Of a DNA stretch of 64,000 nt, positions 2,809 through 45,347 are shown piece by piece. The position numbers were made by a program, and so were the translations under genes. This DNA is from Flavobacteriales bacterium. GTDB taxonomy: Bacteria; Bacteroidota; Bacteroidia; Flavobacteriales_F; PHOS-HE28. The notes beneath the pieces are model-generated. The model saw only the letters and a list, made by a program, of their open reading frames with translations, was not told where the DNA came from and ran no database searches. The stretch covers positions 1,417 through 65,416 of the forward strand of contig JAEUSY010000021.1 of assembly GCA_016788295.1 (NCBI GenBank). Reading direction: 5' to 3'. The first letter of the stretch is position 1. Each line of letters begins with the position of its first letter.

Positions 2809-3492
2809 TCATGGCCGCATCGCGAACCACAGGTGATGCTTGGTGCCTTTGTCGCGGTGCGCGAAGACCTTCTTCTCGTCCACCCGAAAACCCGCCATGC
2901 CCAACCGACGCGTGAACGGGTCGTGCGGATGGGTGGACCATACGGCGAGCACTCCGCCCGGGCGAAGCGCATTATAAGCCGAACGCAGCCCCCGGTGTGA
3001 ATACAGGCGATTGTTCCGGGGTTGGGTCAAGCCTTCAGGTCCATTGTCCGTATCGAGCAGGATAGCGTCATAGCTCCCGTTGCCGGCGCGGATCAATTCA
3101 AGGACATCTCCTTGATGCACCACCGTGCGCGGATCGCTGAGCGGGTTACCCGAACGCTCGCCCATGGGTCCTTGGTTCCACTTGATGACCTCGGGCACCA
3201 GTTCGGCCACGATCACCCTGCCTTTGTTTCCCACCAGGCGCAACACGGCCGCCAGCGTAAAACCCATGCCCAGACCACCAATGACCACATGAGCCTCGGA
3301 AGGCGTGCGCAAGCGTTGAAGCGCCAGATCGGCCAAGGCATCCTCGGACCCATGTATGGCGGTGGACATTAGCTCGCCGGAAATGCCGGCCACCTCGATG
3401 GAGAATTCATCGCCGCGCTGGTAGAGCAGCAATTCGCCGCCGTTATCAGGGATCTGTGCCCGGTCCAAGAGCTTGTTGATGCGCATCTTCAT
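2809..3492 (-). CDS. spermidine-synthase-like (PABS/MTase fold) protein
   Basis: ~227 aa; 'VVIGGLGMGFTLAAVLRLVGNKGRVIVAELVPEVIKW...YDAILLDTDNGPEG' resembles the spermine/spermidine synthase fold; start chosen at MKMRINKLL. Confidence 0.45.
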   Translation of the reverse strand: MKMRINKLLDRAQIPDNGGELLLYQRGDEFSIEVAGISGELMSTAIHGSEDALADLALQRLRTPSEAHVVIGGLGMGFTLAAVLRLVGNKGRVIVAELVPEVIKWNQGPMGERSGNPLSDPRTVVHQGDVLELIRAGNGSYDAILLDTDNGPEGLTQPRNNRLYSHRGLRSAYNALRPGGVLAVWSTHPHDPFTRRLGMAGFRVDEKKVFAHRDKGTKHHLWFAMRP

Positions 3493-4000: not shown

Positions 4001-4468
4001 TCAGGCGGCCATCAGGCTTTGCTGCTCCTCAGCCACTCGCTTGAGGCCAACAAGGGCTTCCACCCACTGCTTTCCGGCCTCCCTGGCGCGCCTTACATCC
4101 TGTGGCAGACCGGCATAATCGCCGTGCCAGAGGTGAAGTTGGGTGCGCCCATCGCGTGCAGGCTGGATGCTTATATCCACTGTTGTGTAGCTGGATGGTT
4201 CATCCGGAAGTCCGGTGCTGAGATCAAGCCAGGTGTAGCGCAACCGATCGCTTGGCTGAAAAGCCATCAGTTCGCCCAAGGCCTTAACGGTTTCCACACC
4301 CTCCACCTTCTCGATCCACTGCAATGGTCCGCCGCGTTTCCACAAACTGCGGACATGCCATCCTTCGCGATACAACTTGATAAGCTCGGGTTCGGTAAGT
4401 GCTCGCCAGATCACCTCGGGTGAGGCATTGATGTAGAGCGAGCGTTCGATGATCGTCTCACGTTCCAT
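4001..4468 (-). CDS. SRPBCC / AHSA1-like (activator of Hsp90 ATPase homolog) family protein
   Basis: 155 aa; 'IERSLYINASPEVIWRALTEPELIKLY' is a typical AHSA1/SRPBCC N-terminus. Confidence 0.6.
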   Translation of the reverse strand: MERETIIERSLYINASPEVIWRALTEPELIKLYREGWHVRSLWKRGGPLQWIEKVEGVETVKALGELMAFQPSDRLRYTWLDLSTGLPDEPSSYTTVDISIQPARDGRTQLHLWHGDYAGLPQDVRRAREAGKQWVEALVGLKRVAEEQQSLMAA

Positions 4469-4571
4469 AGTGATCGTGGAACGTCAGGATCCATGCCGAA
4501 CGCATGTCACACGTTCAAAAATGCCAGTCTGTCAGCCAGCTATTCGTGCTTTCCCAATCTGATAACGACCC

Positions 4572-5690
4572 TCACAACTCCTTGACATAGACCCGGTAAC
4601 GCTTCCAGACCACCCCACCCAGCCGTTCGAGTTCCGCCCGCATACGCGTGTTGCTTTCCAGCACCAAATGGCTGTCGAGATGGGTCATTCCCCGGGCCCG
4701 ACCTTCATGGAACAGTTCGCGCCCGAGCACACAGGTGAGCCCTATGCCCTGCAAGTCCTTCCGCACCGCGCCGAGGAACAGGTCCAGCTGTTTGGAACGT
4801 TTCATGGCCCGCATGATATGCCACCAACCGAAGGGGAACAGACGCCCCTTGGCACGTTGCAGGCCCTCGCTCATATCGGGCATGGCCACCACGAAGGCGA
4901 CGGGTTCAAGGCCTTCGGCCACGATCTTGACCAAGGCGGGGTCAAGCACGGGCATGTATTGACCGGCAAGCTTTCGCATCTCGGCCTCGCTCATAGGCGC
5001 GAAACCCAATAGATCGCCATAGGTATCGTTCACCAGTCGCAACACCGGGAGTATCCAAGGTCGCAGGTCGCGCTTGGAGCGCAGGTCGACCACTTGGAAC
5101 CGGCCACTGCGAAGAACCCGATCCGCAATGCGGTCATAGGTTGCGGGCACTTGTGCAGGCACGTCCACTCGGTAGGAAAGTGCATCAGCAAGGGGCCGGT
5201 AACCACAGGCCTCCGTGGCCTTTGGAAGGTGCTCTGCATTCGTGGGGGTGGCCAATACCGGTAGATGCTCGAAGCCTTTAACTTGGAACCCTTGCGGATC
5301 CTTATCGCTGAATCCATAGGGGCCTATGACCCGGTCCATACCGCGCTCTCGTGCCCAACGCTCCACGTTATCCAGAAGCGCACGGACCACGGCAGGATCG
5401 TTCACGGCGTCCAGTTGGAAGAACCGCGCCGTGCGTTCCTCATGGCGCCGGTTGTAGGATCCGTGAATAATGCCCATCACCCTGCCAACGATCCGGCCAT
5501 CGCGTTCGGCCAGCCAATGCGTCACTTCGCAATCCATGGAACCAAGGTTCCGATGCGGGTCATGAAGCTCGCGCTCATCGGCGAGCAGCGGAGGGACCTG
5601 GTTCGGACGGCGGTCGGCCAAGTGCAGGGGAAGTGTGATGAAGCGCTCCAGTTCCCTGGCACCTTTTATCGGCCGCACGGTGATAGGCAT
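4572..5690 (-). CDS. GNAT-family acetyltransferase-like protein (long form)
   Basis: 372 aa; uncharacterised family resembling long GNAT proteins; no signal peptide. Confidence 0.45.
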   Translation of the reverse strand: MPITVRPIKGARELERFITLPLHLADRRPNQVPPLLADERELHDPHRNLGSMDCEVTHWLAERDGRIVGRVMGIIHGSYNRRHEERTARFFQLDAVNDPAVVRALLDNVERWARERGMDRVIGPYGFSDKDPQGFQVKGFEHLPVLATPTNAEHLPKATEACGYRPLADALSYRVDVPAQVPATYDRIADRVLRSGRFQVVDLRSKRDLRPWILPVLRLVNDTYGDLLGFAPMSEAEMRKLAGQYMPVLDPALVKIVAEGLEPVAFVVAMPDMSEGLQRAKGRLFPFGWWHIMRAMKRSKQLDLFLGAVRKDLQGIGLTCVLGRELFHEGRARGMTHLDSHLVLESNTRMRAELERLGGVVWKRYRVYVKEL

Positions 5691-5943: not shown

Positions 5944-7632
5944 ATGATGAAAAAGACACTACTCGGATGTGGTCTCTTCTTGGCGGCGATGGCCGTACAG
6001 GCACAGATCACCACCTACGTGCTACAGCCGGCTTCGCTGGAAGGAGCACTGGAATTCACTTGGGCGGACAATTGGGGTGCCACGCCCGACCTGAACGATC
6101 CTGCCAACACCATTCAAGGCTTCGCAGCCTTTGTGAATGATGGCACAGCAGCTGACTCACTTGGGTGCAACACGTTGGTCAACAACGCTGAACTGGCCGG
6201 CAAGATCGCCGTGGTGTATCGTGGCACCTGCGAGTTCGGCCTAAAGGCACTGAACGCCCAGACGGCTGGCGCGATCGGGGTCGTCATCATCAACAACCAA
6301 GGCACTCCGATCGCCATGGGTGGTGGTGCGAACGGTGCGAACGTGACCATTCCCGTTGTGATGATCTCCACGGATGCCGGTGCGACCTTGTACAACGAGC
6401 TCCTCGCAGGCAATGTGGAAATGCTGATCGGCAGCGTACAGGGCGTGTACGAGTTCAACCTGCACACCTCATCCAAGCTCGCTTCCATCCCTCAGTACAG
6501 CGCCATGCCAGGTCCCTTGGCCAATGCGATCAACTTCTCGGTGGACATGGGTAGCTGGATCAAGAACTTCGGTTCAGCAGACCAGTCTGATGTTACGGTG
6601 AACTGTGTGGTTACGCAGAACGGTACCGAGGTATACAATAACACCTCTGATGCCGGTTCGATCCTAAGCGGAGACAGCGCATTCTTTGCCCTGCCAGCAT
6701 TCACGCAATCCACATGGAGCGGCTATTACGAGGCCACCTACACGGTTTCCTCACCCAATGCGGATAACTTCCCGAGCGACGACACCTTCGGGTTCAATTT
6801 CTACGCTGGCGACGTGTTCGCCTATGGCCGCATCGACGCAACGACACTTCAGCCCCGTGCCGAGCAGCATGTACGTGCCACTCTTGACGCACCGAGCTTC
6901 ATGGCTTGTTCCTACTTCAGCCACCCGAATGCCAGCGGCTACAAGGTTGAAGGTATCTACACCTCGGCCTCGAAGTCCGGTGGAGCCAGCATGGACGGCG
7001 AAGTGCTCGAAGCCCGTATCTACGAGTGGGCTGATGTGTTCACCGGCTGGAATGATGCCACCACGACCAATATTGTTCTTCTTCAACTCGGAGAGTACTT
7101 CTACGAAGAAGACCTCGGTGGTCAAGTGGTTTATATCCCCTTCACGGAGACCTTCCAGATGGAGGACAACAAGAAGTACCTGTTCTGCAGCTTCTCACCT
7201 TCCACCGATGTTTTCCTTGGCTTCGGTGAATCGCTGGATTACAACAGGATCCAGACCCAGTTGGACCAACCGATCTACCTGATGAACGACAACGGCACCT
7301 GGGGTTCATTCAACGATGCAACGCACACCACCATTGGAGCCAAAATGGTTCCTGCCGATGTGAGCGTGAACGATGCCGATCGCGTGGAGCTCACGCCCTA
7401 CCCGAACCCCACCGCCAATGTGCTTCGCATCCCCTTGACGGGCATGAGCGGTGCAGCCAGCCTGAGCGTGTTCGACCTGACCGGCGCTTTGGTGATGACC
7501 AACAAGGTTGCTATTGGTGGCGACCACACGCTGACCGTGGACCTTCAGTCCCTGGCCAACGGCACCTACATCTTCCGCATGGAATTCGAGAACGGCAAGC
7601 GCTCCGACTTCCGCGTGGTGGTTACCAAGTGA
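5944..7632 (+). CDS. secreted PA-domain protein with T9SS C-terminal sorting domain
   Basis: signal peptide 'MMKKTLLGCGLFLAAMAVQAQ'; PA-domain-like 'KIAVVYRGTCEFGLKALNAQTAGAIGVVIINN'; C-terminus 'YPNPTANVLRI...GTYIFRMEFENGKRSDFRVVVTK' (Por_Secre_tail type A). Confidence 0.7.
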   Translation: MMKKTLLGCGLFLAAMAVQAQITTYVLQPASLEGALEFTWADNWGATPDLNDPANTIQGFAAFVNDGTAADSLGCNTLVNNAELAGKIAVVYRGTCEFGLKALNAQTAGAIGVVIINNQGTPIAMGGGANGANVTIPVVMISTDAGATLYNELLAGNVEMLIGSVQGVYEFNLHTSSKLASIPQYSAMPGPLANAINFSVDMGSWIKNFGSADQSDVTVNCVVTQNGTEVYNNTSDAGSILSGDSAFFALPAFTQSTWSGYYEATYTVSSPNADNFPSDDTFGFNFYAGDVFAYGRIDATTLQPRAEQHVRATLDAPSFMACSYFSHPNASGYKVEGIYTSASKSGGASMDGEVLEARIYEWADVFTGWNDATTTNIVLLQLGEYFYEEDLGGQVVYIPFTETFQMEDNKKYLFCSFSPSTDVFLGFGESLDYNRIQTQLDQPIYLMNDNGTWGSFNDATHTTIGAKMVPADVSVNDADRVELTPYPNPTANVLRIPLTGMSGAASLSVFDLTGALVMTNKVAIGGDHTLTVDLQSLANGTYIFRMEFENGKRSDFRVVVTK

Positions 7633-10524: not shown

Positions 10525-12393
10525 TCATGACGACCGATAAGCTACTTCATGATAGGTCTTCACATGCGGGCCCAGGAAAACACGAGCATAGATCCTGATC
10601 AATGCAAGACCGTTAAGCACAAAGCTCATGGCCACCATGAATGCCAGCAAGAGCTGGTCCGGGTGAATGTGTGAATAGATGAGGTCTTCACCGAGAAAAG
10701 TTGGCGTGATGGGAAAGCCTGCAAGGCCCAATGCGGCAAGCAGGAACATCAAGGCAATACGCGGATGCTCGAACACATGCCCATGGAACCGGCCCATGTC
10801 CACGTTGCGCTCGGTCCTGCGTAGGCGGTTGATGGCGAACACGGCCACAACGCCTGATAATACCACGCCGGACAGGTATATCAAGTTGTGGGACTGATCG
10901 AAGTGCTCATTGAAGGAGATCGCCAGGGCCACCCAGAAATGCGCCATGACCACCATGGCCAAGGCCCGGCGGACATGCCTTCGTTCGGTGAACGCACGAA
11001 GGACCAACAAGAGCGAGATGCCTGCGGCAACAGCAGGGAGCGCATGCAAAAGCGCTGGTGAGAGGTAGTGCTTATTGAAGACCAGGAAAACGCCTGCCAC
11101 GAAGAAGGGGAACAGCACCGCGATGGAGCGGTTGATGTTGAAGACGTCCATTCTGCGGCCCAACTTCTTCAAGGGGTTCCACCACCAACGGTACATGAAG
11201 GTGTCCAGGTTCCATTCCTTCAGGCTGAGCACATACATAGTGTACTCAAGCCGCTTGGGCAACGAATCCTCGAAGGTGTGCGCACGTGGCTTGAAATTGT
11301 AGAACTGCTCCCGGATCAGGTAGGTGACCACGGAAGGCGACACAAGCAGTTGATAGGTGCGCAGGAAAGCGTTTCCAGCGAAATGGATCAAGGCCAAAAG
11401 CTCGAGGCCAAGAGCTACTTCAATGAAGATCAGCCCGATCTGAGCAATGGACGAATAGGCGATCTGCGCCTTGACGGAAGACTGTACGCGGGCGGTCGGC
11501 GATGCGAGAAGACTGGTGAGCAGGCCCACGGCACCTATAATTACCCGAACACTGGTCTGGTGCTCCCAGAACGGGAAGGTGCGCAGCAGAAGGAAAACAC
11601 CGATATGCACCGATAAGGAACCGTAGAAGATGGCGCTTGAAGGTGTAGGGCCTTCCATGGCACGGGGTAGCCAGGAGGAGAACGGTAATTGGGCCGACTT
11701 GGCCATTGCGGCCAGCAGAATACAGAGCGAAACGAAGATGCCTATGGCCGAGTGACCCGCCAGTTGATGGTGCACCAGCTCGTAGTTGTGCAGCTTGTGG
11801 AAGGTGATGTTCTCGTGCCAGAGGTGATGGCTGGCCCACATAGCGAGTATCAAACCCACATCGCCAATGCGGTAAATGGAGAACACCTTCACCGCGTTCT
11901 TCACTGGCAGGTACCGCTCGCGGTAGAAGGCGATGAGCAGGAATGAGGAGACCCCGAGCACCTCCCATCCGATGAACAGGGTCTCGAAATTACCGGCGAG
12001 TATCGTGATCGCGAAGCCCGTGAAGAAGAAGAGCACCGTATTGAAAAAGCGCTTGAAACCAGCCTCGCGATGGAGGTAGTAGCGGCTGTAGATCGTGATC
12101 ATGAACGTGAGCAACGCACCCACGAGCAGGTACACGGCCGAGACCCGATCATAGTATAGATCGACGAAGAACTCATACCCGGTACTGCGGTAGACCACCA
12201 TTTCCTTAACGTTCAGGCTCGGCCAGCCCTTGAAGGACCACCAAATGGTGAATGCGAGAATGAGGAAGAACTGAACCCCTGCGGTCAGGTATGCGGTTCG
12301 TGATAGGGCCAGCTCATGCCGCCGGGGTATCAAAAGGCTGATAAGGAACCCAATAAGCGGAAGAAGGATGAAGAGCGGGAGCAGGTATTCCAT
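10525..12393 (-). CDS. dabB: DabB: NuoL/MrpA-like proton-conducting membrane subunit of a DAB inorganic-carbon pump
   Basis: 622 aa polytopic; NuoL/ND5-like 'FIGWEVLGVSSFLLIAFY'; starts 3 nt after the DUF2309 gene. Confidence 0.7.
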   Translation of the reverse strand: MEYLLPLFILLPLIGFLISLLIPRRHELALSRTAYLTAGVQFFLILAFTIWWSFKGWPSLNVKEMVVYRSTGYEFFVDLYYDRVSAVYLLVGALLTFMITIYSRYYLHREAGFKRFFNTVLFFFTGFAITILAGNFETLFIGWEVLGVSSFLLIAFYRERYLPVKNAVKVFSIYRIGDVGLILAMWASHHLWHENITFHKLHNYELVHHQLAGHSAIGIFVSLCILLAAMAKSAQLPFSSWLPRAMEGPTPSSAIFYGSLSVHIGVFLLLRTFPFWEHQTSVRVIIGAVGLLTSLLASPTARVQSSVKAQIAYSSIAQIGLIFIEVALGLELLALIHFAGNAFLRTYQLLVSPSVVTYLIREQFYNFKPRAHTFEDSLPKRLEYTMYVLSLKEWNLDTFMYRWWWNPLKKLGRRMDVFNINRSIAVLFPFFVAGVFLVFNKHYLSPALLHALPAVAAGISLLLVLRAFTERRHVRRALAMVVMAHFWVALAISFNEHFDQSHNLIYLSGVVLSGVVAVFAINRLRRTERNVDMGRFHGHVFEHPRIALMFLLAALGLAGFPITPTFLGEDLIYSHIHPDQLLLAFMVAMSFVLNGLALIRIYARVFLGPHVKTYHEVAYRSS

Positions 12394-12396
12394 GGT

Positions 12397-14943
12397 TCAG
12401 GCGTTCTCCAGGATGGTCACAGGCATGTTATCCACTGAACCGCGCAGCACGGCGAAAAGGTCACGCGCCCGCTCCACCTGGCCGTGATGTGGCAAATAGT
12501 GCTCGAACCGGCCTTCGCGAAATCGATACATGGACCGATCGATCGGGTGAACAACAATGAGATGCACCCATTCATGAATGAACCACTCGTAGGTGGCCTT
12601 CACGCTTTGTATCACGCTCAGTACTACATCCGGCTCCTGTTCAACGATCATGAGCAACCGCACGGGATCATGTACCTCGATCATCTGGATTGGTAGTCCA
12701 GGTCGCAGGTCTCCCTCGATCCCATTGGCAACACCTATGAGGCCCATCACATTATGTGGCAGTTTCGTGCCTGCGCCAAGCTTGTGGTTGTCCATCCGGG
12801 AAAAGAAGTACTCCAGGTTGATCCCCCCACAAACCGGAGCCGCTGCACCCAGTATACCAGTGAGGAATTTTCCAGTGGGGTCCACTGTGCTATCATAGCT
12901 GTTCAGGAAAGACCTTCTGTCCAGGAAGAGCCCACGCGTTAGCTCACGTCGACCAACCACACAGAGCGCATTGGTGGCATGGTTCAACTCCGGACGAGGC
13001 TCAAAGAGCGAAACCGAACGCCGACGCACCTGTGCATGGATATCCTCCTCAGCGTCCTGCATGGCCACCGTATCGAAACGACGGGCCCGTTCATGCGCAT
13101 TGGCCTTAAGGGCAGTGCGGAACACCTCCACATGACGAACATGAAAGACCCGTTGTTCGTCGGTCAATAGGGCCTCATCGTAAAAGACGATCTCATCGCG
13201 CGTGGTATCGTGCAGAGCTGCGACAAAACGAGTGCCTGTCGGGATATCAACCCCCTTTTCACGAAGAATGGCGCGAACATCCTTGTGGTTCGCCATGGTA
13301 GAGAACACCCGCGCATTCACCGAACCGGGCCTACCGGAACACGCTCCGCAATCATAAGCCGCGTAGTGCGGGTTGTTCACACTGCTGGCCCCGTGACCTA
13401 CAACATAGACCAGAGGTTCGAAGTTGGAGACCAGGCCGATACCCTTAAGCACTGCTTCAACGCGACTGGCCATTTCGGTTGCCGTGAATCCGACCTGTAG
13501 CCCGTCCTCGCGGTGATCCGCATCCACGTTCTCCACCGTTAGCGAGGCGAGGTGGTCCATGTGCTGAAAGGCATCGGAGGTGCCCGGGATCGCTGTGGGA
13601 CGGAATATGTTTATGAACAACTTCAGCGCGGACCAGAATCCCAAGGTCTGTGAGACGATCCAACCACCCACCAGACCATGGCTGTGCTTTCCGAAGTGTG
13701 CGTCCTTCTTAACCCGTGAGCGCTTGTCCACTTCCTTCACGAGGTAACTCGGCGTTATCGGGGCGGGACAGACCTTGGTATTGAACCGACCATTTTCCGG
13801 ACGGTAGTAGAACTCAACGCCGAAATGGCCTGGAGTCCCGTAGGTGCGGAAGCCAGGGTGCGCACGCTCCAAGTGACGTCGGAAAGAACATTCGCGATCA
13901 TCAATGCAGAACAGCCCTTGGACCGATACTACACCTTCGGCTGCTCGTTCGCGGTCGTTCTGCAGGATGCCAGCAAGGACTTCATCGTAGTATGTCCACT
14001 CGAACGCCTCCTGCCAAAGGGACCTTACCTCGTCGACCTCATTGAATGGCAACGGGGCGAACAATGGGGTTGGACGATGCCGCATCCCTTCGGCTAATGG
14101 CCGCCATCCCTTGGGAAACTCACGATCAAGCGCATCGACCTCCAGGAGCAGCTCGAAAATGATCAGCTCGCGCAGGGAAATGGCCCGTTTGTCCAGTAGC
14201 GAACCGGGGTCCGATTCGATCACTGCAACGAGTCCGGACCATCCTTGGTGGGCGAACTGCTGATCGAAGAGATACTGCTCATACAGGGCCTCATCACCGA
14301 CCAGGATGCCGAGCAATTGCTGGATCGAGGTCTGTTCGTTCATCAGCAGGTCAACAGCCCGAGGTCCCTTGATGAAGCCTGTCCAAGAATGCCGTTGCAG
14401 TTCGCGGATGGAGGAAAGGAAGCCCTTGTTCCAGACGGGGAAGTTCCAGATGGAGATGCCTTGGTCCAAGTAGCTGTTCAGCACCCGGAACAAGGTGGTA
14501 TGTACCACGGCATCCATGTCGATACGCCGGTCGCGCTTCCAATGTCCGCGAAGCCTACCGATACGTGCGTCAATGGAGCTGTCGTACTTCTTGCCGAGCA
14601 TGCGTCCGAGCCACTCACTGGCCTCGGCATCACCTTTCCGATCGCGCACCACACGTTGCAGCACCTCGCTTCGGATGCGGCCTTCGATGTGGAGCTTGCG
14701 GTACTCATGCACCGTAAGGGTTGTCTTGTATCCGAACAAACGCGAGGCGCGATGCAACGCATCGGTGAACTTCTCCTGCTGAAAAGCGTGCAGGGTATTG
14801 TGGTGAATGAAGTCCTTCAGGGGTGCCTGTGCAGGCAGGTAGTGCTTCAGTTCGTGGATAACATGCTCCTCATCGAATCCCGAGCGGACCGACCCCGCAT
14901 TATCGACATTGTGGTCCATGACCGCAGTTGGGTGGGCATCCAT
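12397..14943 (-). CDS. dabA: DabA: DUF2309 carbonic-anhydrase-like subunit of a DAB inorganic-carbon pump
   Basis: 848 aa; 'LKDFIHHNTLHAF', 'FCIDDRECSFRRHLE', 'VGHGASSVNNPHYAAYDCGACSGRPG' match the conserved Cys/Asp and His/Cys zinc-ligand motifs of DabA. Confidence 0.8.
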   Translation of the reverse strand: MDAHPTAVMDHNVDNAGSVRSGFDEEHVIHELKHYLPAQAPLKDFIHHNTLHAFQQEKFTDALHRASRLFGYKTTLTVHEYRKLHIEGRIRSEVLQRVVRDRKGDAEASEWLGRMLGKKYDSSIDARIGRLRGHWKRDRRIDMDAVVHTTLFRVLNSYLDQGISIWNFPVWNKGFLSSIRELQRHSWTGFIKGPRAVDLLMNEQTSIQQLLGILVGDEALYEQYLFDQQFAHQGWSGLVAVIESDPGSLLDKRAISLRELIIFELLLEVDALDREFPKGWRPLAEGMRHRPTPLFAPLPFNEVDEVRSLWQEAFEWTYYDEVLAGILQNDRERAAEGVVSVQGLFCIDDRECSFRRHLERAHPGFRTYGTPGHFGVEFYYRPENGRFNTKVCPAPITPSYLVKEVDKRSRVKKDAHFGKHSHGLVGGWIVSQTLGFWSALKLFINIFRPTAIPGTSDAFQHMDHLASLTVENVDADHREDGLQVGFTATEMASRVEAVLKGIGLVSNFEPLVYVVGHGASSVNNPHYAAYDCGACSGRPGSVNARVFSTMANHKDVRAILREKGVDIPTGTRFVAALHDTTRDEIVFYDEALLTDEQRVFHVRHVEVFRTALKANAHERARRFDTVAMQDAEEDIHAQVRRRSVSLFEPRPELNHATNALCVVGRRELTRGLFLDRRSFLNSYDSTVDPTGKFLTGILGAAAPVCGGINLEYFFSRMDNHKLGAGTKLPHNVMGLIGVANGIEGDLRPGLPIQMIEVHDPVRLLMIVEQEPDVVLSVIQSVKATYEWFIHEWVHLIVVHPIDRSMYRFREGRFEHYLPHHGQVERARDLFAVLRGSVDNMPVTILENA

Positions 14944-15005
14944 GGCACAAAGGTGCCCAGGTCCATATGGGGAAGCATTAACACGGGATTAAACCGTGCG
15001 ACGCG

Positions 15006-16376
15006 CTATTGGGAGATCGGCAGATCCAGCACCACGGATGTGCCCATACCCGATCCGGACCTTATTGTTACCCGACCACCATGTACCCTTACGATCCGAT
15101 CGACGAGCGTTAGCCCGATCCCGTGCCCATCCATGGCCGGCGCATCCACGGCCCTGAAAAACATCTCCTTGGCCCTTTGCAAGGTCTCAGCGCTCATGCC
15201 GGGCCCATCGTCCGCAACGGTAAAGGAAGCGTTGAACGGGCTTACCACGAGACTTAGCAACACCGTCGTACCGCCCCCGTACTTGGCCGCATTCGACAAG
15301 AGATTATACACCGCAGCCGTCAGCAGCACCGAGCTTCCCATTATCACAGGCTCGTGAACCTCGTCCGCGATATCCAGCTCGAAGCGCACAGGCACATGGG
15401 GATAGCGCATCGCGCAACGTTCCATGGCCCGCTCGGCAACCTCATCCAACCTCACACGGTCCTTGAGCAAGGCCGCCGTGGCCACTTGGGTACGTGCCAA
15501 CCAGAGCAATTGGTCCAGCAGGTCCTGCATATGCACGGCTTGTGCTTCAACAGCGTGCAGATGCCTTTCGGCGGGGCCGTTCGGCTCAACCAGTCCTTTG
15601 GCAAGATGCAGTTCACCCCGCACTACAGTAAGTGGTGTGCGCAACTCATGTGAGGCTGTTGCCATGAATGAGCGCTGCACCTCGAACGCTTCATCGAGGC
15701 GGACCAACAGCCCATTGAAGGCAATGGCCACTTCATCCAGCTCGTCCGGGGTCTTGGTATCGTTCACTTGGAGGCGTTCCGAAGGGCGCTCCATGGTGCC
15801 GAGCTGATGCACCAGCTGACGCACTGGAGCAAGGGCCCATGTGGCATAAGCCCATGACAGCAGGGCCGTAAGCAGAAGTGCGACCATCCCGGAACCGATC
15901 ACCCAACGACGCAACAAGGCCATGGACGCCAGCCCGCTCCTATCTATTGCCGAGGTCATGGTGTACCGGATCCCCGCCTGCAAGGTCTCCGGCCTGTCCA
16001 CAACAACGAACTGTCGATCATCCCGAGCAATACGCACAATGCCACGCTGACTTGCAACTTCACGCCAGCTCTTGGGAAGATCGATCGGGCTGGTGGAACG
16101 TTGGAACAGCACGGACCCGTTGGTCCCCAGCACCACCAGCTCCTCATTCGGAAGGGCCTCTTGAAGCAGTTGGGCAAGATGCTCGGCCTCATCAACAGGC
16201 AACGACCGCGCCTGCACCAACAAATGCTCAACAAGCACCGCCCTGTCCTCCAACCGTTGATAGAACTCGGCCTCACGAAGTGCCTCGCTACGCTGAAGAA
16301 TGAGATAGCTGAACGCCAGGATGAGCACCGCCACGAGGACAGTAAACGCCACGGCCATGCGCAAGCGGAAACTCAT
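15006..16376 (-). CDS. sensor histidine kinase (two TM helices, periplasmic domain, HAMP, HisKA, HATPase)
   Basis: 456 aa; H-box 'ATASHELRTPLTVV'; G-boxes 'LLSNAAKYG', 'DDGPGM', 'GHGIGL'. Confidence 0.9.
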   Translation of the reverse strand: MSFRLRMAVAFTVLVAVLILAFSYLILQRSEALREAEFYQRLEDRAVLVEHLLVQARSLPVDEAEHLAQLLQEALPNEELVVLGTNGSVLFQRSTSPIDLPKSWREVASQRGIVRIARDDRQFVVVDRPETLQAGIRYTMTSAIDRSGLASMALLRRWVIGSGMVALLLTALLSWAYATWALAPVRQLVHQLGTMERPSERLQVNDTKTPDELDEVAIAFNGLLVRLDEAFEVQRSFMATASHELRTPLTVVRGELHLAKGLVEPNGPAERHLHAVEAQAVHMQDLLDQLLWLARTQVATAALLKDRVRLDEVAERAMERCAMRYPHVPVRFELDIADEVHEPVIMGSSVLLTAAVYNLLSNAAKYGGGTTVLLSLVVSPFNASFTVADDGPGMSAETLQRAKEMFFRAVDAPAMDGHGIGLTLVDRIVRVHGGRVTIRSGSGMGTSVVLDLPISQ

Positions 16377-17053
16377 GGTGCTTCCTCTCGAATGACATAC
16401 CCCATGCCCGTGACCGTATGAATGAGCCGCTTCACGAAGGGCTTATCCACTTTCTTCCGAAGCATGTTGATGTACACGTCAACGAGGTTCGTTTCCGTGT
16501 CGAAGGAAACATCCCAAACATGGTCCAAGATCTCACCTCGGCTTGTAACCCGTCCCTTTCGTTGGAGAAGGAAACGCAGCAGTGCGAACTCACGCGCCGT
16601 AAGCCTTACTTCCTGCCCTGCGCGCGTGACCGTCCGCGCATCATCATCAAGTTGCAGGTCCCCACAGGTAAGTATGCGCTCTGTGCCCCTACCCTGCGAG
16701 CGCCGCACCAAGGCTTGCACGCGGGCCATGAGCAGTTTGGGGTCGAAGGGCTTGGGGAGATAATCATCGGCCCCGGCCCCGAATCCTTTCACTTGTTCCT
16801 CCACACCATCAAGCGCGGTGAGCATGAGAATGGGAACACGTGGACGCTGTTCGCGCACATGGCGGCACACATCGAGGCCACTTCGTTTGGGCAACATCCA
16901 GTCCAACAAGAGAATGTCGGGCTCCTGTTCTATGGCCATTCGTTCACCCTCCAAGCCGTCCACAGCGATCTCCACTGAGAAACCTGCCGACCTCAACTCC
17001 TGTGCAATGAAGGCCGCGACCTGTGGTTCGTCCTCTACGATCAACGCTCGCAT
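16373..17053 (-). CDS. OmpR-family response regulator
   Basis: 226 aa; 'MRALIVEDE', 'LLLDWMLP', 'PILMLTA', wHTH C-terminus 'GMGYVIRE'; ATGA overlap with the HK. Confidence 0.92.
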   Translation of the reverse strand: MRALIVEDEPQVAAFIAQELRSAGFSVEIAVDGLEGERMAIEQEPDILLLDWMLPKRSGLDVCRHVREQRPRVPILMLTALDGVEEQVKGFGAGADDYLPKPFDPKLLMARVQALVRRSQGRGTERILTCGDLQLDDDARTVTRAGQEVRLTAREFALLRFLLQRKGRVTSRGEILDHVWDVSFDTETNLVDVYINMLRKKVDKPFVKRLIHTVTGMGYVIREEAP

Positions 17054-17196
17054 GTCCCAAAAGTAGCAGTGCGAATTGCGCTTTACCAGTTCCTAGCGGA
17101 TCTAATCCGGATCTCATAACACGCCCTCTCCACGGGAGGAATTTTGTGGCCTCGAAGATCCAAGGAGAGCGAGAACGGAACGACATACAGACGAAC

Positions 17197-18846
17197 ATGG
17201 CACATCATAAGGACCATCAGGAGCCCTTACCATTGAACGGTCTGGCCGGCCTTAAGCAAAACTGGCGGAAGGATGCCCTATCCGGGTTCATCGTATTCCT
17301 CATTGCCCTGCCCCTTTCCTTGGGCATTGCCATGGCATCGGGTGTACCGCCCATGTCCGGCATCATCGCAGCAGTGATCGGCGGCATACTTGTCTCCCGC
17401 ATCAACGGAAGCAATGTCACCATCAATGGCCCTGCCGCAGGATTGATCGTGGTGATCGTGGGCGCCGTGGAAAGCCTTGGCAATGGCGACCCCATGGCTG
17501 GATATCGCAGCATGCTGGCCGCTGTGGTGATATCGGGTGGACTGCTCTTTCTCCTTGGCAGGTTGAAGGCTGGCAAATTGGGTGATTTCTTCCCGGCATC
17601 AGCCGTGCATGGCATGCTCGCGGCCATTGGCATCATCATTCTTGCCAAGCAGGTCCATGTTGCCCTTGGTGTCAAGCCTGAAGGCAAGGAGCCGCTGGAG
17701 CTATTGGCGGAGATCCCGCACAGCCTGATGAACTGGAACCCTGAGGTGGCCATTATCGGTGCGGCCAGTCTGCTCATCATGATCATTCTACCGCTGATCA
17801 AGAACAAGTATGTGAAGATGATACCCGCGCCCATGGTAGTGGTCCTGTTAGGTATGGGGCTGGCGCACTATTTCGACCTTGAGCACGAGCATAAATACCT
17901 GTTCCTCGATGGACATGAATACGTACTTGGTCCAAAATTCCTCGTGACGCTACCCGAACGCGTGATGGATGGCATTGTCTTTCCCGACTTCTCCAAGACG
18001 CTGAGCTATCCGTTCCTGATGGCTGTGATCAGCATAACGCTGGTACAGGGGATCGAATCACTGTTGAGCGCCAAAGCCGTGGACAAGCTGGACCCTTGGA
18101 AGCGCCAAAGCGACCTGAACAAGGACCTGAGCGCTGTTGGTGCCGGGAGCGCGATATCAGGCATGATCGGTGGTCTTCCGATGATCGCGGAGATCGTGCG
18201 CAGCAGTGCGAACATCAACAACGGTGGCAGAACGGGATGGGCGAACTTCTTCCATGGCTTGTTCCTGCTGGTCTTCGTGGTCGCCTTCCCCACGCTGATC
18301 CACAGCATTCCGCTGGCAGCGCTCGCCGCCATCCTCATGTATACCGGGTACAAGTTGGCCGCGCCTCAACATTTCAAACACACCCTGCAGATCGGCAGTG
18401 AGCAATTGGCCATCTTCACCACCACGCTGATCATTACGCTTGCAACGGACCTTATCATTGGCGTGTTCAGCGGCATCCTGCTTAAAATGATCCTCCACCT
18501 CTTCCGTGGGGCTTCGCTGCGCACGCTCTTCAAACCCACGGTAGCCGTGCACTATGAATCCCTCGCCGATCGCTTCCTCGTGTCTGTTCACAACGTGGCG
18601 ATCTTCTCCAACTACCTCTCCCTGAAAAAGCAACTGGACACAATACCTGCGGGAAAGGACGTGGTGGTGGATTTCGACAATGCCACATTGGTGGACCATA
18701 CCGTGATGGAGCATCTCCATTCCTACAAGAGCCTGTACGAACGCAATGGCGGCAGCTTTGAACTCAAGGAAATGGGGCATTTGATCCCGCGCTCGCAACA
18801 TCCGCTCTCTGCTCGCCGCACATCACGCAAGCAGGTACCAGCATGA
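17197..18846 (+). CDS. SulP-family anion transporter with C-terminal STAS domain (candidate bicarbonate/sulfate permease)
   Basis: ~549 aa; 'GFIVFLIALPLSLGIAMASGVPPMSGIIAAVIGG' is the SulP signature region; STAS-like C-terminus; start taken at MAHHKDHQEPL (the track ORF extends further 5'). Confidence 0.85.
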   Translation: MAHHKDHQEPLPLNGLAGLKQNWRKDALSGFIVFLIALPLSLGIAMASGVPPMSGIIAAVIGGILVSRINGSNVTINGPAAGLIVVIVGAVESLGNGDPMAGYRSMLAAVVISGGLLFLLGRLKAGKLGDFFPASAVHGMLAAIGIIILAKQVHVALGVKPEGKEPLELLAEIPHSLMNWNPEVAIIGAASLLIMIILPLIKNKYVKMIPAPMVVVLLGMGLAHYFDLEHEHKYLFLDGHEYVLGPKFLVTLPERVMDGIVFPDFSKTLSYPFLMAVISITLVQGIESLLSAKAVDKLDPWKRQSDLNKDLSAVGAGSAISGMIGGLPMIAEIVRSSANINNGGRTGWANFFHGLFLLVFVVAFPTLIHSIPLAALAAILMYTGYKLAAPQHFKHTLQIGSEQLAIFTTTLIITLATDLIIGVFSGILLKMILHLFRGASLRTLFKPTVAVHYESLADRFLVSVHNVAIFSNYLSLKKQLDTIPAGKDVVVDFDNATLVDHTVMEHLHSYKSLYERNGGSFELKEMGHLIPRSQHPLSARRTSRKQVPA

Positions 18847-19655
18847 GCCGTTCACTGCACGGCAGCATCATTATGGCCCTTGTTGCCTTGGTGCTTTTGC
18901 CATGGACTGCGAAGGGTCAGACCCAACGGGTCACGGACCCCAACTCCAACCTTTGGATCTCTCATTGGGGCGATCAACGGATACATGATCGCTGGAGCCT
19001 GCACACTGAGATCCATTGGCGCCGGGCAGACATGGGGGTGAATTGGCAACAGTTGCTCATTCGACCAGCGGTGAACTTCCACCTGAACGACCACGTGCTG
19101 TTCACCCAGGGCTACAGCTACTATTTCAACTACCAGTACGGCGACCACCCGATACGCTACCAGAACTGGGAACACCATTTGTACCAACAGGTGCAGCTCA
19201 CCCAACCGTTGGGGCGTATCAAGTTCCAGCACCGGTTCCGCATGGAGGAACGGTTCATCGCACAACTTATCCCATCAGAGGAGAACCCAGCGGATGGCGC
19301 GTTCGACCACTATGCCTATCAGAGCCGGTTCAGGTACCGTGTCTGGCTGACCATTCCGCTGGGTAAGCATGAGAAAGTGGAGCCCGGCGTGCTGTCGGCC
19401 AACTTCTACGACGAGGTGTTCCTCAATTTCGGTGACAGCCAACGGTTGGACTACATCCAACAGAACAGGATCTCTGCCATGCTGGGCTACCAAGTGAACA
19501 AACCCTTCAGTGTGCTACTTGGGTTCCTGTACCAGACCATTGAGCGACCCCAAGCGGCGAACGGTGCGGACCTGCTCGAACTGAACTCCACGATACACCT
19601 GGCACTGGTGTACAACTTGGACCTACGAAAGCAGGAATTACCAGCGGCCCATTGA
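18843..19655 (+). CDS. DUF2490-like protein (signal peptide; possible outer-membrane protein)
   Basis: 270 aa; signal peptide 'IMALVALVLLPWTAKGQ'; aromatic/Arg-rich 'RFRYRVWLTIPL' patterns; ATGA-coupled to the SulP stop. Confidence 0.4.
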   Translation: MSRSLHGSIIMALVALVLLPWTAKGQTQRVTDPNSNLWISHWGDQRIHDRWSLHTEIHWRRADMGVNWQQLLIRPAVNFHLNDHVLFTQGYSYYFNYQYGDHPIRYQNWEHHLYQQVQLTQPLGRIKFQHRFRMEERFIAQLIPSEENPADGAFDHYAYQSRFRYRVWLTIPLGKHEKVEPGVLSANFYDEVFLNFGDSQRLDYIQQNRISAMLGYQVNKPFSVLLGFLYQTIERPQAANGADLLELNSTIHLALVYNLDLRKQELPAAH

Positions 19656-19657
19656 AA

Positions 19658-19690
19658 AGCGAAGCCCGCCTTACGGGGCGGGCTTCTGAG
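19658..19690. terminator. bidirectional terminator hairpin between convergent genes
   Basis: GAAGCCCGCC-ttacgg-GGCGGGCTTC located 3 nt after the stop at 19655. Confidence 0.55.
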
Positions 19691-19835
19691 TATCCTGAAC
19701 TCCCGGCTTACGGGCCTGGACAAGGGCTTTTTACGCCGCTGGGCTGATGCCCCCTGTGTTCAGGTATTTCATTCGGAGCTTGCTTACCCAAGCTTCGTGC
19801 TTGATCAACGCAAGGCATGTGCCGAATGTTGCACG

Positions 19836-38821: not shown

Positions 38822-39928
38822 ATGCAACGCACACTCCTCATCCTCGCCGCCGCTGCCACCATGGCCGGCTGTAGCACCGATCTCGATATCAACGCACCGT
38901 ACAAGGACGTGACCGTGGTCTACGGCCTGCTGAACATGCGCGATTCGGTGCATTATGTGAAGATCAACAAGGCCTTCCTTGGCGAAGGCAATGCCTTTGT
39001 TTATGCGGCCATTCGCGATTCCAGCGAATACCGGGATGAGGATATCACACAGGCCGTGGTCTACCGCGTGAACAGCGCCGGAACACCGGTGGATTCGTTC
39101 CTGCTGCGTGATACCCTGCTGACCGGACGACTGCCCGGCGACTTCTATTACCCCGAGCAGAAGGTGTACTACTTCAATACGCCCCAACGGATCATCAACC
39201 CCAGCGGTACACCCCAGATCAGTTCAGGGCCCACGTTCCTTTACCAGAACGGCATTTACAAGCTGAAGCTGAAGATCAAGGGTCGTGATGTGACCTCCAC
39301 CTCGAACATTGCCAGCGATATCACCATTGCCTCCAACGACCAGGATACGCTGAACAGCGCCTCGGCCATCAACTTCATGAACCCCCTTGGCAACGGATAC
39401 GGCATCTACGAGTTCAACTGGACCTCCTCCATATCGGGTATCCCATGGACCAATAAACGATTTGTGGTGACCTTGGACTTCAAGTTCGATGAGGTTCGTG
39501 GCGGTGTATCCCAACGCATCGTGAAGAGCCGGGAGCTTGGTACCGTGGTGGCCACGGCTGCTTCACAACCGTTGGCCGTCACCCTTCCCGGAGAGACCTT
39601 CTACAGCTGGTTGCGCAACTCGATCCCGGACGACCCGGCCGTGGACCAACGCATTTTCCGCGGAATTGATTTCCGCGTGGATGCCGCCAACGAGGACTTC
39701 CACACTTACCTGACCCTCACGGAACCCATCTCCAGCATCGTGGAAGACCGTCCCCAGTATTCCAACATCGATGGGGCCTATGGCCTATGGGCCAGCCGGT
39801 ACTACAAGAACGTGGTGAACAAGCGCCTGAACCCCGCATCGCTCAACGAGCTGATCAACGGCACCTACACCTCCACCATGAGGTTCTGCTCGGGATTCAA
39901 CTCCGGGCCGCCCTACGGCTGTAACTGA
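38822..39928 (+). CDS. hypothetical lipoprotein
   Basis: 368 aa; lipobox 'LAAAATMAGCSTD'. Confidence 0.4.
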   Translation: MQRTLLILAAAATMAGCSTDLDINAPYKDVTVVYGLLNMRDSVHYVKINKAFLGEGNAFVYAAIRDSSEYRDEDITQAVVYRVNSAGTPVDSFLLRDTLLTGRLPGDFYYPEQKVYYFNTPQRIINPSGTPQISSGPTFLYQNGIYKLKLKIKGRDVTSTSNIASDITIASNDQDTLNSASAINFMNPLGNGYGIYEFNWTSSISGIPWTNKRFVVTLDFKFDEVRGGVSQRIVKSRELGTVVATAASQPLAVTLPGETFYSWLRNSIPDDPAVDQRIFRGIDFRVDAANEDFHTYLTLTEPISSIVEDRPQYSNIDGAYGLWASRYYKNVVNKRLNPASLNELINGTYTSTMRFCSGFNSGPPYGCN

Positions 39929-40067
39929 CGATCTGTCCTTTTGGCAGAGTTGTCGGCAGGGCTTCCTGGCCAGACACAGTGATCCTGTCATGAATATCGC
40001 TTCCCTGACAGATGGCATATCCCTTGCCAAGGGCCTGCCATCTGAAAACAGCTAAGCAACCTACGAC

Positions 40068-41966
40068 ATGAGCAAGATCATCGGGATCGATCTGGGAACC
40101 ACCAACAGCTGCGTATCCGTAATGGAGGGCAACGAGCCGGTGGTGATCGCCAACAGCGAAGGAAAACGTACCACACCCAGCGTTGTGGCCTTTGTGGAAG
40201 GTGGCGAACGTAAGGTGGGCGACCCGGCCAAGCGCCAGGCCATCACCAACCCCACGAACACGATCTTCTCCATCAAGCGCTTCATGGGCAACTCGTACGA
40301 CGAGAGCTCCAAGGAAGCATCGCGCGTGCCCTACAAAGTGGAGCGCGGCCCGAACAACACGCCCCGCGTGCAGATCGGCGACCGCCAGTACACGCCGCAG
40401 GAGATCAGCGCCATGGTGCTGCAGAAAATGAAGAAGACCGCCGAGGACTACCTCGGCACCACCGTATCCGAGGCCGTGATCACGGTGCCTGCCTACTTCA
40501 ACGATGCCCAGCGCCAAGCCACCAAGGAAGCCGGTGAGATCGCCGGCCTGAAGGTGCGCCGCATCATCAATGAACCGACCGCTGCCGCACTGGCGTACGG
40601 TCTGGATAAGAAAGGCATCGACCAGAAGATCGTGGTGTTCGACTGCGGTGGTGGTACGCACGACGTGAGCGTGCTGGAACTGGGCGATGGCGTGTTCGAA
40701 GTGAAGGCCACCGATGGTGATACCCACCTGGGTGGTGATGACTTCGACCAAGTGATCATCGACTGGTTGGCCGATGAGTTCAAGAGCCAGTACAGCATCG
40801 ACCTGCGCAAGGACCCCATGGCCCTGCAGCGCCTGAAGGATGCGGCCGAAAAGGCCAAGATCGAACTGAGCAGCACCACGAGCTCGGAGATCAACCTGCC
40901 TTACATCATGCCCGTGGACGGTGTGCCGCAGCACTTGGTGCGCAGCCTCACCCGTGCCAAGTTCGAGCAACTGGCCGACAGCCTGATCAAGCGCACCATC
41001 GCACCCTGCGAGAGCGCGTTGAAGAACGCCGGACTGAAGACCAGCGACATCGACGAGGTGATCCTGGTGGGGGGCAGCACCCGCATCCCTGCGATCCAGG
41101 AGGCAGTGAAGAAGTTCTTCGGCAAAGAGCCCAGCAAGGGTGTGAACCCCGATGAAGTGGTGGCCGTGGGCGCCGCCATTCAGGGTGGTGTGCTCACTGG
41201 TGAAGTGAAGGACGTGCTCCTGCTCGATGTGACCCCGCTGAGCCTGGGCATCGAGACCATGGGCGGCGTAATGACCAAATTGATCGAGGCGAACACCACG
41301 ATCCCCACCAAGAAGAGCGAGACCTTCAGCACGGCCAGCGACAACCAGCCGAGCGTGGAGATCCATGTGCTGCAGGGCGAACGCCCCATGGCCAGCGGAA
41401 ACCGTACCATCGGACGCTTCCACCTCGATGGCATTCCCCCCGCACCGCGTGGCGTGCCCCAGATCGAAGTGACCTTCGACATCGATGCCAACGGTATCCT
41501 GCATGTGGGCGCCAAGGACAAAGCCACCGGCAAGGAGCAGAGCATCCGCATTGAGGCCAGCAGCGGACTCAGCAAGGAGGACATCGAAAAAATGAAGCAG
41601 GAGGCCGAGGCCAACGCCGATGCTGACAAGGCCACCCGCGAACGCGTGGACAAGCTGAACGCAGCGGACAGCCTCATCTTCCAGACCGAGAAGAGCCTGA
41701 AGGAGTACGGCGACAAGATCCCGGCCGAGAAAAAGCAACCCATTGAGGATGCCCTGACGCGTCTGAAGGACGCTCACAAGGCACAGGACGTTGATGCATG
41801 CGAAAAGCTGATGGGCGAACTGAACACTGCATTCGGTGCAGCCAGCGAAGAGATGTACAAGGCCACCCAGGAAGGTCAGGCCAATGGTGGTGCCAACAAC
41901 ACCAGCAGCACCGCCGATGCCGATGTGACCGATGTGGACTTCGAGGAAGTGAAGGAAACGAAATAA
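40068..41966 (+). CDS. dnaK: molecular chaperone DnaK (Hsp70)
   Basis: 632 aa; '[13 protein letters not shown]', '[14 protein letters not shown]', '[10 protein letters not shown]', C-terminal 'EEVKETK'. Confidence 0.98.
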
Positions 41967-41993
41967 GGTCCGGCCAAAACGCATCACAGAAGA

Positions 41994-42026
41994 AAGCCCC
42001 GTTGCTCGCGCAACGGGGCTTTCACA
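41994..42026 (+). terminator. rho-independent terminator after dnaK
   Basis: AAAGCCCCGTTG-ctcgcg-CAACGGGGCTTT. Confidence 0.7.
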
Positions 42027-42042
42027 TGCGAACGACCAGCGA

Positions 42043-45256: not shown

Positions 45257-45347
45257 CCAACTGAACCTTGCCGATGGTGGACCTCTTCTGCGTGTTAGGA
45301 AGCGCGGGAGGCCAGGTCTGTCACGATCAGATCAAAACCCATTGAAC

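Follow-up and report, generated by a model that had tools for sequence, protein, structure and literature searches.

The closest described counterparts of the locus analyzed here are the DAB pumps, their representatives in heterotrophs and the SulP-type transporters of inorganic carbon, all of which are already known from the literature. The reference for the first is DAB2 of Halothiobacillus neapolitanus (DabA2/DabB2; PDB 9rd0; Desmarais et al. 2019; Lo et al. 2026). In the 9rd0 structure, DabA2 residues C351, H524 and C539 bind zinc and the D353-R355 dyad activates water, and the DabA2 substitutions E444A and E444Q both abolish DAB2 activity. MpsAB of Staphylococcus aureus is reported to supply bicarbonate at atmospheric CO2 and to complement a carbonic-anhydrase mutant, and has been argued to use sodium. 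Such DAB/Mps pumps matter for growth in air and no regulator has so far been tied to them; more generally, the sensing of CO2 or bicarbonate by non-photosynthetic, non-autotrophic bacteria is poorly understood. Here we describe a locus in a 64,000-nt stretch of contig JAEUSY010000021.1 from a Flavobacteriales bacterium (the window, along which all positions are counted), in which a dabA-dabB pair, a two-component system (TCS) made up of a response regulator (RR) and a sensor histidine kinase (HK), and a divergent operon for a SulP-family transporter and a DUF2490 protein lie side by side. We regard it as probable that these genes constitute a two-operon regulon for inorganic-carbon acquisition in a heterotroph, placed under the RR-HK pair that lies between the operons; the same box, at a fixed distance from the promoter of each operon, makes it probable that inorganic-carbon uptake can be switched here.

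The window was compared with 80 genomic loci that carry genes for relatives of DabA and come without exception from Bacteroidota, onto which the window proteins and clustered open reading frames (ORFs) were mapped; L-numbers denote related loci retrieved for comparison. On the minus strand of the window, the genes for the RR (16373–17053; 226 aa) and the HK (15006–16376; 456 aa) precede dabA (12397–14943; 848 aa) and dabB (10525–12393; 622 aa), and sulP (17197–18846; 549 aa) and the DUF2490 gene (18843–19655; 270 aa) occupy the plus strand. This arrangement had been proposed in an initial annotation made from the sequence alone, and the ORF calls bear out all six genes with their coordinates, gaps and overlaps: a 3-nt gap separates dabA from dabB (TGAaccATG from stop to start), the RR-HK pair lies 62 nt upstream of dabA on the same strand, the RR and HK genes overlap by ATGA, as do sulP and the DUF2490 gene, and 143 bp separate the divergent RR and sulP genes. 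A longer sulP ORF is possible from a GTG at 17023; the ATG at 17197 is preferred because homologues align from residue 1. Profile searches likewise returned the expected families PF10070 (DabA), PF00361 (DabB), PF00916 (SulP) and PF10677 (DUF2490).

Aligning the regions upstream of the RR genes and downstream of the HK genes of related loci revealed a box, which is a direct repeat with an 11-bp period and the pattern YTAAT-N6-YTMAT. It matches the 64-kb window twice, against 0.17 matches expected, at 14977–14992 on the minus strand before dabA and at 17102–17117 on the plus strand before sulP. Each match is part of a predicted promoter: that of dabA (14948–14992, minus strand) consists of the box TTAATCCCGTGTTAAT (14992–14977), a 25-nt spacer and a TTTG (14951–14948) placed 4 nt ahead of the dabA ATG, and that of sulP (17102–17146, plus strand) consists of the box CTAATCCGGATCTCAT, a 25-nt spacer and a TTTG at 17143–17146. 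The TTTG is the core of TAnnTTTG, the -7 promoter element of Bacteroidota. The distance from the end of the box to the TTTG is exactly 25 nt in 19/19 instances and the spacer sequence is unconserved. The dabA-side box recurs with this spacing at the same position in 11 related loci, and the sulP-side box, in the same orientation and with the same spacing, in L002, L003, L004, L081, L082, L083 and L085; at L081 and L082 both boxes are the same 19-mer. The box is also present before dabA in L006 and L041, neither of which was used to derive the pattern. Throughout the related TCS loci with dabAB, scanned over up to 22 kb, it occurs at these two places only. The RR gene has its own canonical Bacteroidota-type -7 element, TACTTTTG (17058–17065, minus strand), situated 4 nt before its ATG and conserved as TAC(T/A)TTTG in the window, L002, L003, L004, L083, L085 and L086.

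The box was not found at L086 and L087, where the TCS stands without the two operons, and only 2 of the 72 dabA upstream regions lacking an adjacent TCS contain it. One of these, from an AT-rich Flavobacterium, looks like a chance match; the other, L065 (~3000–3130), comes from a high-GC Flavobacteriales metagenome-assembled genome (MAG) whose DabA is 66% identical to that of the window, and retains the box with the exact 25-nt spacing with no TCS or SulP gene adjacent. This suggests regulation in trans; the L065 contig ends in YajQ, and a TCS may yet lie a few kb off. As judged from these comparisons, the box belongs to the target promoters and not to the TCS genes: it travels with the promoters, since L065 has a box without a TCS and L086 and L087 have a TCS without boxes. 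For the same reasons, we rejected the idea that the RR-HK pair is a mobile cassette with the boxes as its terminal inverted repeats. OmpR/PhoB operators typically take the form of an 11-bp direct repeat standing in for the upstream promoter element, and this geometry, together with the co-occurrence of box and TCS, points to the RR as the factor that would bind the box. A general scan of the window for sigma-70 promoters and terminators, which is ill-suited to Bacteroidota promoters, gave counts not above those of shuffled sequence.

By Pfam, the TCS is of the OmpR/PhoB type. The RR combines a receiver with a winged-helix Trans_reg_C domain (PF00072 and PF00486), its acidic pocket, D51 and K101 being visible in the sequence, and the HK consists of a first transmembrane segment, a periplasmic PDC/PAS-like domain (~aa 28–155), a second transmembrane segment and HAMP, HisKA (H243) and HATPase_c domains. 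Among orthologues, H243 and the N and G boxes are invariant and the recognition helix and wing of the RR almost so, the TCS-only loci included. The AlphaFold2 (AF2) model of the sensor domain (aa 28–155; pLDDT 87) has a PDC/PAS-like fold, which matches the extracytoplasmic domains of WalK, CusS, CzcS, CpxA and CitA with weak E-values; its invariant residues include R41, R45, R93 and W104. An assignment to the heavy-metal TCS (TIGR01386/TIGR01387) was rejected, as the scores are below the curated cut-offs (HK, 150.9 vs 292.55 bits; RR, 220.5 vs 279.2).

The initial annotation had tied this TCS to dabAB, a tie that conserved synteny and the shared box support, though not as an obligate one. The RR-HK pair is found upstream of dabA only in the closest relatives (L001–L006 and L041; DabA at least 67% identical); the TCS is confined to one high-GC Flavobacteriales lineage and most Bacteroidota dabAB loci are without it. 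The HK orthologues form a sharp group, ranging from 100% to 45% identity and derived entirely from Flavobacteriales MAGs, with the next matches at ~32%. Within it, the divergent order sulP(-DUF2490) and RR-HK-dabA-dabB is kept at the window, L002, L004, L081, L082, L083 and L085, contigs of HK orthologues with 55%, 57% and 45% identity included, with differing outer neighborhoods; a 30% outgroup kinase is not adjacent to dabAB. Two orthologues (50% and 45% identity; L086 and L087) belong to intact RR-HK pairs without dabAB and sulP-DUF2490, which shows that the pair is not obligately linked to the DAB genes, and both loci keep the wider synteny DUF4153 ... RR-HK ... YajQ. In a neighbor-joining tree their HKs fall in different clades, each beside DAB-linked members; hence, loss of both operons at these loci appears more economical than repeated gain. 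A further arrangement is seen in a Reichenbachiella MAG (L042, 6308–17384), with eight same-strand genes for a beta-carbonic anhydrase, a 245-aa membrane protein, an RR, an HK, DabA, DabB, DUF2490 and a 736-aa SulP. The HK of this cluster (420 aa) has an unrelated sensor and its RR-HK pair is unrelated to that of the window, indicating that a TCS has joined DAB clusters at least twice.

The sulP-DUF2490 cassette is bounded by a non-coding element of ~105 nt (19655–19760, minus strand) with two GTAA-loop hairpins, CCAGGCCCGTAAGCCGGG and GAAGCCCGCCCCGTAAGGCGGGCTTC, which is conserved and terminator-like. The element is also present at L002 (~625–730), L003 (~5360–5470), L004 (~2660–2770), L086 (~4390–4500) and L087 (~6145–6255). 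It follows the DUF2490 stop at the DAB-linked loci and lies ~60 nt upstream of the RR promoter at the TCS-only loci L086 and L087; the box-sulP-DUF2490 cassette can thus be placed exactly between the hairpin element and the RR promoter. The hairpins show a few compensatory pairs across loci, the element has no Rfam family, and no Rfam family was found anywhere in the window at gathering scores. A reading of 'CATGAGAAG' at L086 as a remnant half-box or deletion scar was withdrawn, since the sequence is on the wrong side of the hairpin element.

The products of dabA and dabB are, by their sequences, members of the DAB family. DabA, the beta-carbonic-anhydrase-like cytoplasmic subunit, matches PF10070 over profile positions 1–747 of 747 (E=3.6e-217, 723.8 bits) and contains both motifs singled out in the initial annotation, 'CIDDRE' and 'GHGASSVNNPHYAAYDCGACSG'. 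The zinc ligands and the Asp-Arg dyad expected from them are preserved: in phmmer and MAFFT alignments to PDB 9rd0_A, C346, D348, R350, H517 and C532 correspond to C351, D353, R355, H524 and C539 of the H. neapolitanus protein, and these five residues are invariant in 79/79 Bacteroidota DabA from related loci. The equivalents of H585 and D590 are strictly conserved in the same alignment (n=79). DabB, the NuoL/MrpA-like membrane subunit, matches PF00361 and PF00662, and the co-oriented dabA-dabB pair is conserved in every related locus with enough sequence.

At other positions, both subunits depart from DAB2. The hydrophobic transmembrane finger of DabA, GLVGGWIVSQTLGFWSALKLFINIF, is without an acidic residue, and the residue aligned to Glu444 is Q432 (MAFFT) or K441 (phmmer), a conserved Gln/Lys; the position of DabA2 Leu658 is His in 79/79 Bacteroidota DabA (residue 655 in the window). 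The best PDB sequence match of DabB is Escherichia coli NuoL (1.4e-39), against 7.9e-26 for H. neapolitanus DabB2 (9rd0_B), and DabB retains the equivalents of NuoL E144, R175, D178 and K229, that is, both ion pairs, its GWE aligning to the GWE144 of NuoL. The loss of this glutamate that typifies DAB2 (Ile151 in DabB2) is thus not seen in the window. These residues place the window DabAB outside the DAB2 subtype and point to a distinct subtype of the family. A small ORF of 115–140 aa stands directly before dabA on the same strand in most Bacteroidota dabAB loci without the TCS (L007–L080; e.g., L032 7797–8162, L009 9501–9866, L046 9404–9823 and L055 3278–3628) and is absent from the lineage of the window. 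Its product is hydrophobic in an N-terminal segment, acidic in the middle and marked at the C-terminus by a motif like ...PLF.L....I; it returned no Pfam match and could be a third DAB-associated protein.

The SulP/SLC26-family protein matches PF00916 over profile positions 2–378 of 380 (E=3.1e-58), so that the SulP half of its initial description as a SulP/STAS transporter stands. The STAS half fell below curated cut-offs: the whole protein gave no Pfam match to STAS at E≤0.001 or E≤0.01, and the C-terminal 109 aa alone scored E=0.0076 against STAS_2 (16.8 bits; cut-off 29.2) and E=0.081 against STAS (13.1 bits; cut-off 22.6). The phmmer alignment to SLC26Dg (5da0) extends through the STAS region of that protein, and we describe the C-terminus as divergent and STAS-like. 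SLC26Dg and the BicA membrane domain (6ki1; 4.7e-22) are about equal as the best PDB matches. The NCBIfam scores are all below cut-off, at 124.6 vs 880 bits for BicA (NF050096), 181.9 vs 614 for DauA and 142.8 vs 380 for TIGR00815.

The proposed link between SulP and dabAB proved to be no local accident. Among the loci with enough flank (at least 4.5 kb upstream and at least 6.5 kb downstream; n=47), 42 have a SulP gene beside dabAB, whose product is 42–58% identical to the window SulP. Most often sulP follows dabA and dabB on the same strand; some families have it upstream in divergent orientation. SulP adjoins DUF2490 or an unnamed ~450-aa signal-peptide protein in 30 of the 42 SulP-bearing loci, and eight loci have nearby a second, more distant SulP (34–36% identical) paired with a beta-carbonic anhydrase with CSDSR and HYGCG motifs. 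The recurrence of these neighbors is the main evidence for a role of sulP in inorganic-carbon metabolism. The family also shows variation within this setting. One close relative, L003 (6379–7698, minus strand), has in place of the 549-aa SulP another PF00916 protein, of 439 aa and lacking the STAS region, and retains the box, DUF2490 and the order of TCS and dabAB. Long variants (710–750 aa) in L007, L008, L042, L077 and ~15 other loci bear an extra C-terminal ~190 aa after the STAS-like region, which has no Pfam match and is not a carbonic anhydrase.

The partner of SulP, the DUF2490 protein (PF10677, 151 bits), is predicted to be a small outer-membrane beta-barrel with a signal peptide. Its AF2 model (pLDDT 91.5) shows an N-terminal signal helix and then ~12 strands, and the best Foldseek matches are all outer-membrane barrels, NanC first and then CymA and OprO/OprP, with weak E-values. 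DUF2490 is listed as a putative porin family whose function is not established (TC 1.B.81), and a 2026 preprint describes a buried Arg/Glu/Tyr charge network inside many of its barrels. Runs of invariant alternating Arg, His and Glu residues extend across the homologues. Every DUF2490 gene in the compared dabAB loci adjoins a SulP gene, and this pairing across Bacteroidota provides a first functional lead for the family. At other loci (e.g., L008, 5283–6617 on the minus strand; L024, L027, L034, L043 and L050) an unnamed family of ~430–470 aa, whose members have a signal peptide and end in ...YQIFF, stands in for DUF2490 beside the DAB-linked SulP; it gave no Pfam match and no credible PDB sequence match, and is probably another outer-membrane barrel.

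Building on the gene identities, catalytic residues, conserved synteny and box geometry observed here, we propose the following mechanism. The periplasmic PDC-like domain of the HK would sense a cue, most likely low inorganic carbon or a linked change in bicarbonate or pH, and the HK would phosphorylate the RR. The phosphorylated RR would then bind YTAAT-N6-YTMAT, which stands exactly 25 nt ahead of the TTTG in place of an upstream promoter element, and activate, rather than repress, both PdabA and the divergent PsulP. Of the products, DabAB would hydrate cytoplasmic CO2 to bicarbonate with an ion gradient as the drive, SulP would import bicarbonate over the inner membrane, and the translationally coupled DUF2490 barrel would provide or assist passage over the outer membrane, with the bicarbonate feeding biotin carboxylases and other anaplerotic reactions. 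The fullest form of this proposal, in which the HK is a periplasmic bicarbonate/CO2 sensor that switches on a three-tier, envelope-spanning DUF2490-SulP-DabAB uptake route via a defined operator, is put forward tentatively and seems to us doubtful as a whole.

Several points weigh against an inorganic-carbon regulon. Ion coupling may differ from that in the only studied structure, because the DabA finger is without Glu444 and DabB keeps the NuoL-type Glu. The binding of the RR to the box is something we infer, and in NCBIfam both HK and RR score best, at sub-cut-off values, against models of the heavy-metal subfamily. The TCS may have other targets, because orthologous RR-HK pairs persist without dabAB, sulP or box at two loci. 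The fold search with the HK sensor returned generic PAS/PDC matches and gave no ligand clue. Homology by itself does not give the SulP substrate, as the scores lie far below the BicA, DauA and sulfate-permease cut-offs. Finally, the invariant charged residues of DUF2490 fit a pore lining or a buried network, and its role as a channel is putative; it could be a plugged barrel instead of an open pore.

The main rival keeps the regulon and changes its cue or the SulP substrate. Here the TCS would control both operons via the box in response to sodium, to alkaline pH, to the state of the envelope or to a different anion, for example sulfate. SulP and DUF2490 would take up an anion that contains no inorganic carbon, and the co-induction of DabAB would serve to balance pH or charge. 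SulP proteins carry many substrates, and the best NCBIfam model for the window SulP is that of DauA, a C4-dicarboxylate transporter, with the BicA score just a fraction of its cut-off; the HK sensor fold is generic, and in L081 and L085 the module has sulfur-related neighbors (Lactamase_B-Rhodanese and TauE). These neighbors are, however, absent from the window and L083. Moreover, SulP stays with dabAB over many Bacteroidota families and varied gene orders, beta-carbonic anhydrase genes recur in the same neighborhoods, and it is the bicarbonate transporter BicA that is the best solved relative of SulP by sequence. We hold this explanation to be unlikely.

Weaker still, and in our estimate quite improbable, is the proposition that the RR-HK pair is a mere neighbor, for instance a metal or envelope-stress system with its targets elsewhere, and that another factor binds the box. 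A ZIP zinc transporter ~5 kb off could be adduced for it, besides the sub-threshold heavy-metal matches and the intact TCS of L086 and L087. But the CusS metal-ligand positions are not evident among the invariant HK sensor residues, and the box is confined to the lineage with the TCS, the two matches among the 72 TCS-less upstream regions being one chance-like case and one close relative (L065). The placement of an 11-bp direct repeat over the upstream promoter element is also what one expects of an OmpR/PhoB operator, and neither the divergence of the HK to 45% identity nor the turnover of the outer flanks has altered the order of the genes. A view of DabAB as mainly a cation-translocating, membrane-potential system with a secondary carbonic-anhydrase-like site (the original Mps view) could appeal to the closeness of DabB to NuoL with both ion pairs kept, to the lack of the Glu444 that DAB2 activity needs and to the sodium use argued for MpsAB, but it is very improbable given the strict conservation of the zinc ligands, the dyad and the H585 and D590 equivalents in all Bacteroidota DabA, the reported complementation of a carbonic-anhydrase mutant by MpsAB itself, and the SulP and beta-carbonic anhydrase neighbors, which point to inorganic carbon.

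If the HK does sense bicarbonate/CO2 availability in the periplasm, it would be part of the first TCS dedicated to inorganic-carbon acquisition in heterotrophic bacteria. The initial annotation had supposed a DAB-linked TCS to be uncharacterized, and our literature searches, which left subscription journals mostly uncovered, agree: they turned up no work on DabAB of Bacteroidota, on a module of DAB, SulP and DUF2490 or on the control of a DAB by a TCS, and none linking DUF2309 to Bacteroidetes or flavobacteria. The nearest match was the legend of a figure, in which a TCS is listed close to a copper ATPase of H. neapolitanus. The locus offers a compact testable system, with an HK that has a small periplasmic domain, an RR and a predicted operator of fixed geometry before two operons. 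That the Bacteroidota DabAB differ from the sole solved DAB at the presumed coupling residues is relevant to the engineering of DABs in crops and industrial microbes.

The Bacteroidota origin that had been supposed for the DNA is borne out by its closest homologues: the best matches of DabA, HK and DUF2490 are from Flavobacteriales MAGs, and flanking proteins have C-terminal sorting domains of the type IX secretion system (T9SS). The GC content of the window is 55–66%. Apart from DabA's own, the 64-kb window has no beta-carbonic anhydrase motif (CxDxR), and no autotrophy genes were found among the Pfam-scanned ORFs, a set that leaves out two ORFs of ~2,900 aa at 45–63 kb and several others. 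The two are tandem, very large plus-strand ORFs at 45186–54035 and 54448–63186 (2,949 and 2,912 aa). Elsewhere, an ORF at 39897–42158 on the minus strand has a strong match to PF10712 ('NAD-GH') and overlaps a 632-aa plus-strand ORF at 40068–41966; the latter is probably the real gene, since PF10712 is commonly an antisense artefact.

Viewed against the known systems, the window dabAB is, like DAB2, a PF10070 subunit gene followed by a PF00361 subunit gene, with the same Cys/His/Cys zinc site, Asp-Arg dyad and equivalents of H585 and D590, and by analogy it would be expected to perform vectorial, ion-gradient-driven CO2 hydration. There are also differences from DAB2: phmmer aligns only the C-terminal ~465 residues of the window DabA, whose finger has Gln/Lys in place of Glu444 and which has His for Leu658; the window DabB is longer (622 vs 551 aa), has the Glu144 equivalent at the position of Ile151 in DabB2 and is nearer to NuoL; and the genes lie in a presumed heterotroph with no carboxysome context, flanked by a TCS and SulP. 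MpsAB is likewise a DAB homologue of a heterotroph, but its gene order is reversed, the NuoL-like gene coming first, and in its Gram-positive host it has no linked SulP or outer-membrane protein and no dedicated TCS has been described for it. The SulP-carbonic anhydrase pairs and fusions (Felce and Saier 2004) and the tested SulP transporters of inorganic carbon in sulfur-oxidizing autotrophs also tie SulP genetically to CO2/bicarbonate enzymes, as do the SulP and beta-carbonic anhydrase pairs in the Bacteroidota dabAB neighborhoods; the DAB-linked SulP forms a subfamily of its own, which shares just 34–36% identity with these beta-carbonic anhydrase-linked copies and is paired with an outer-membrane barrel. 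That barrel shares its small size and ~12 strands with the NanC/KdgM-type channels, of which NanC is the best solved fold match, whereas its consistent pairing with SulP is absent from the papers found.

At the level of regulation, the closest parallel is PhoR-PhoB and the pho box, which also combine an OmpR/PhoB-family regulator with an operator made of two direct repeats (11-bp period) at the site of the upstream promoter element, the box being common to several operons. The window box differs in sequence (YTAAT-N6-YTMAT), the RR scores below the PhoB cut-offs, that of the Bacteroidota PhoB model included, and the HK, unlike PhoR, has a real periplasmic sensor domain. At the level of function, the cyanobacterial low-inorganic-carbon regulon (BicA/SbtA and NDH-1 CO2 uptake) offers an analogy to the proposed logic, in that a SulP-type bicarbonate importer is there co-induced with an energy-coupled CO2-hydrating complex built on a NuoL-like subunit. 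Its regulators are of the LysR type (CcmR/NdhR and CmpR) and sense metabolites. The window, which has no Rubisco or carboxysome context, would instead use a membrane HK with a periplasmic domain.

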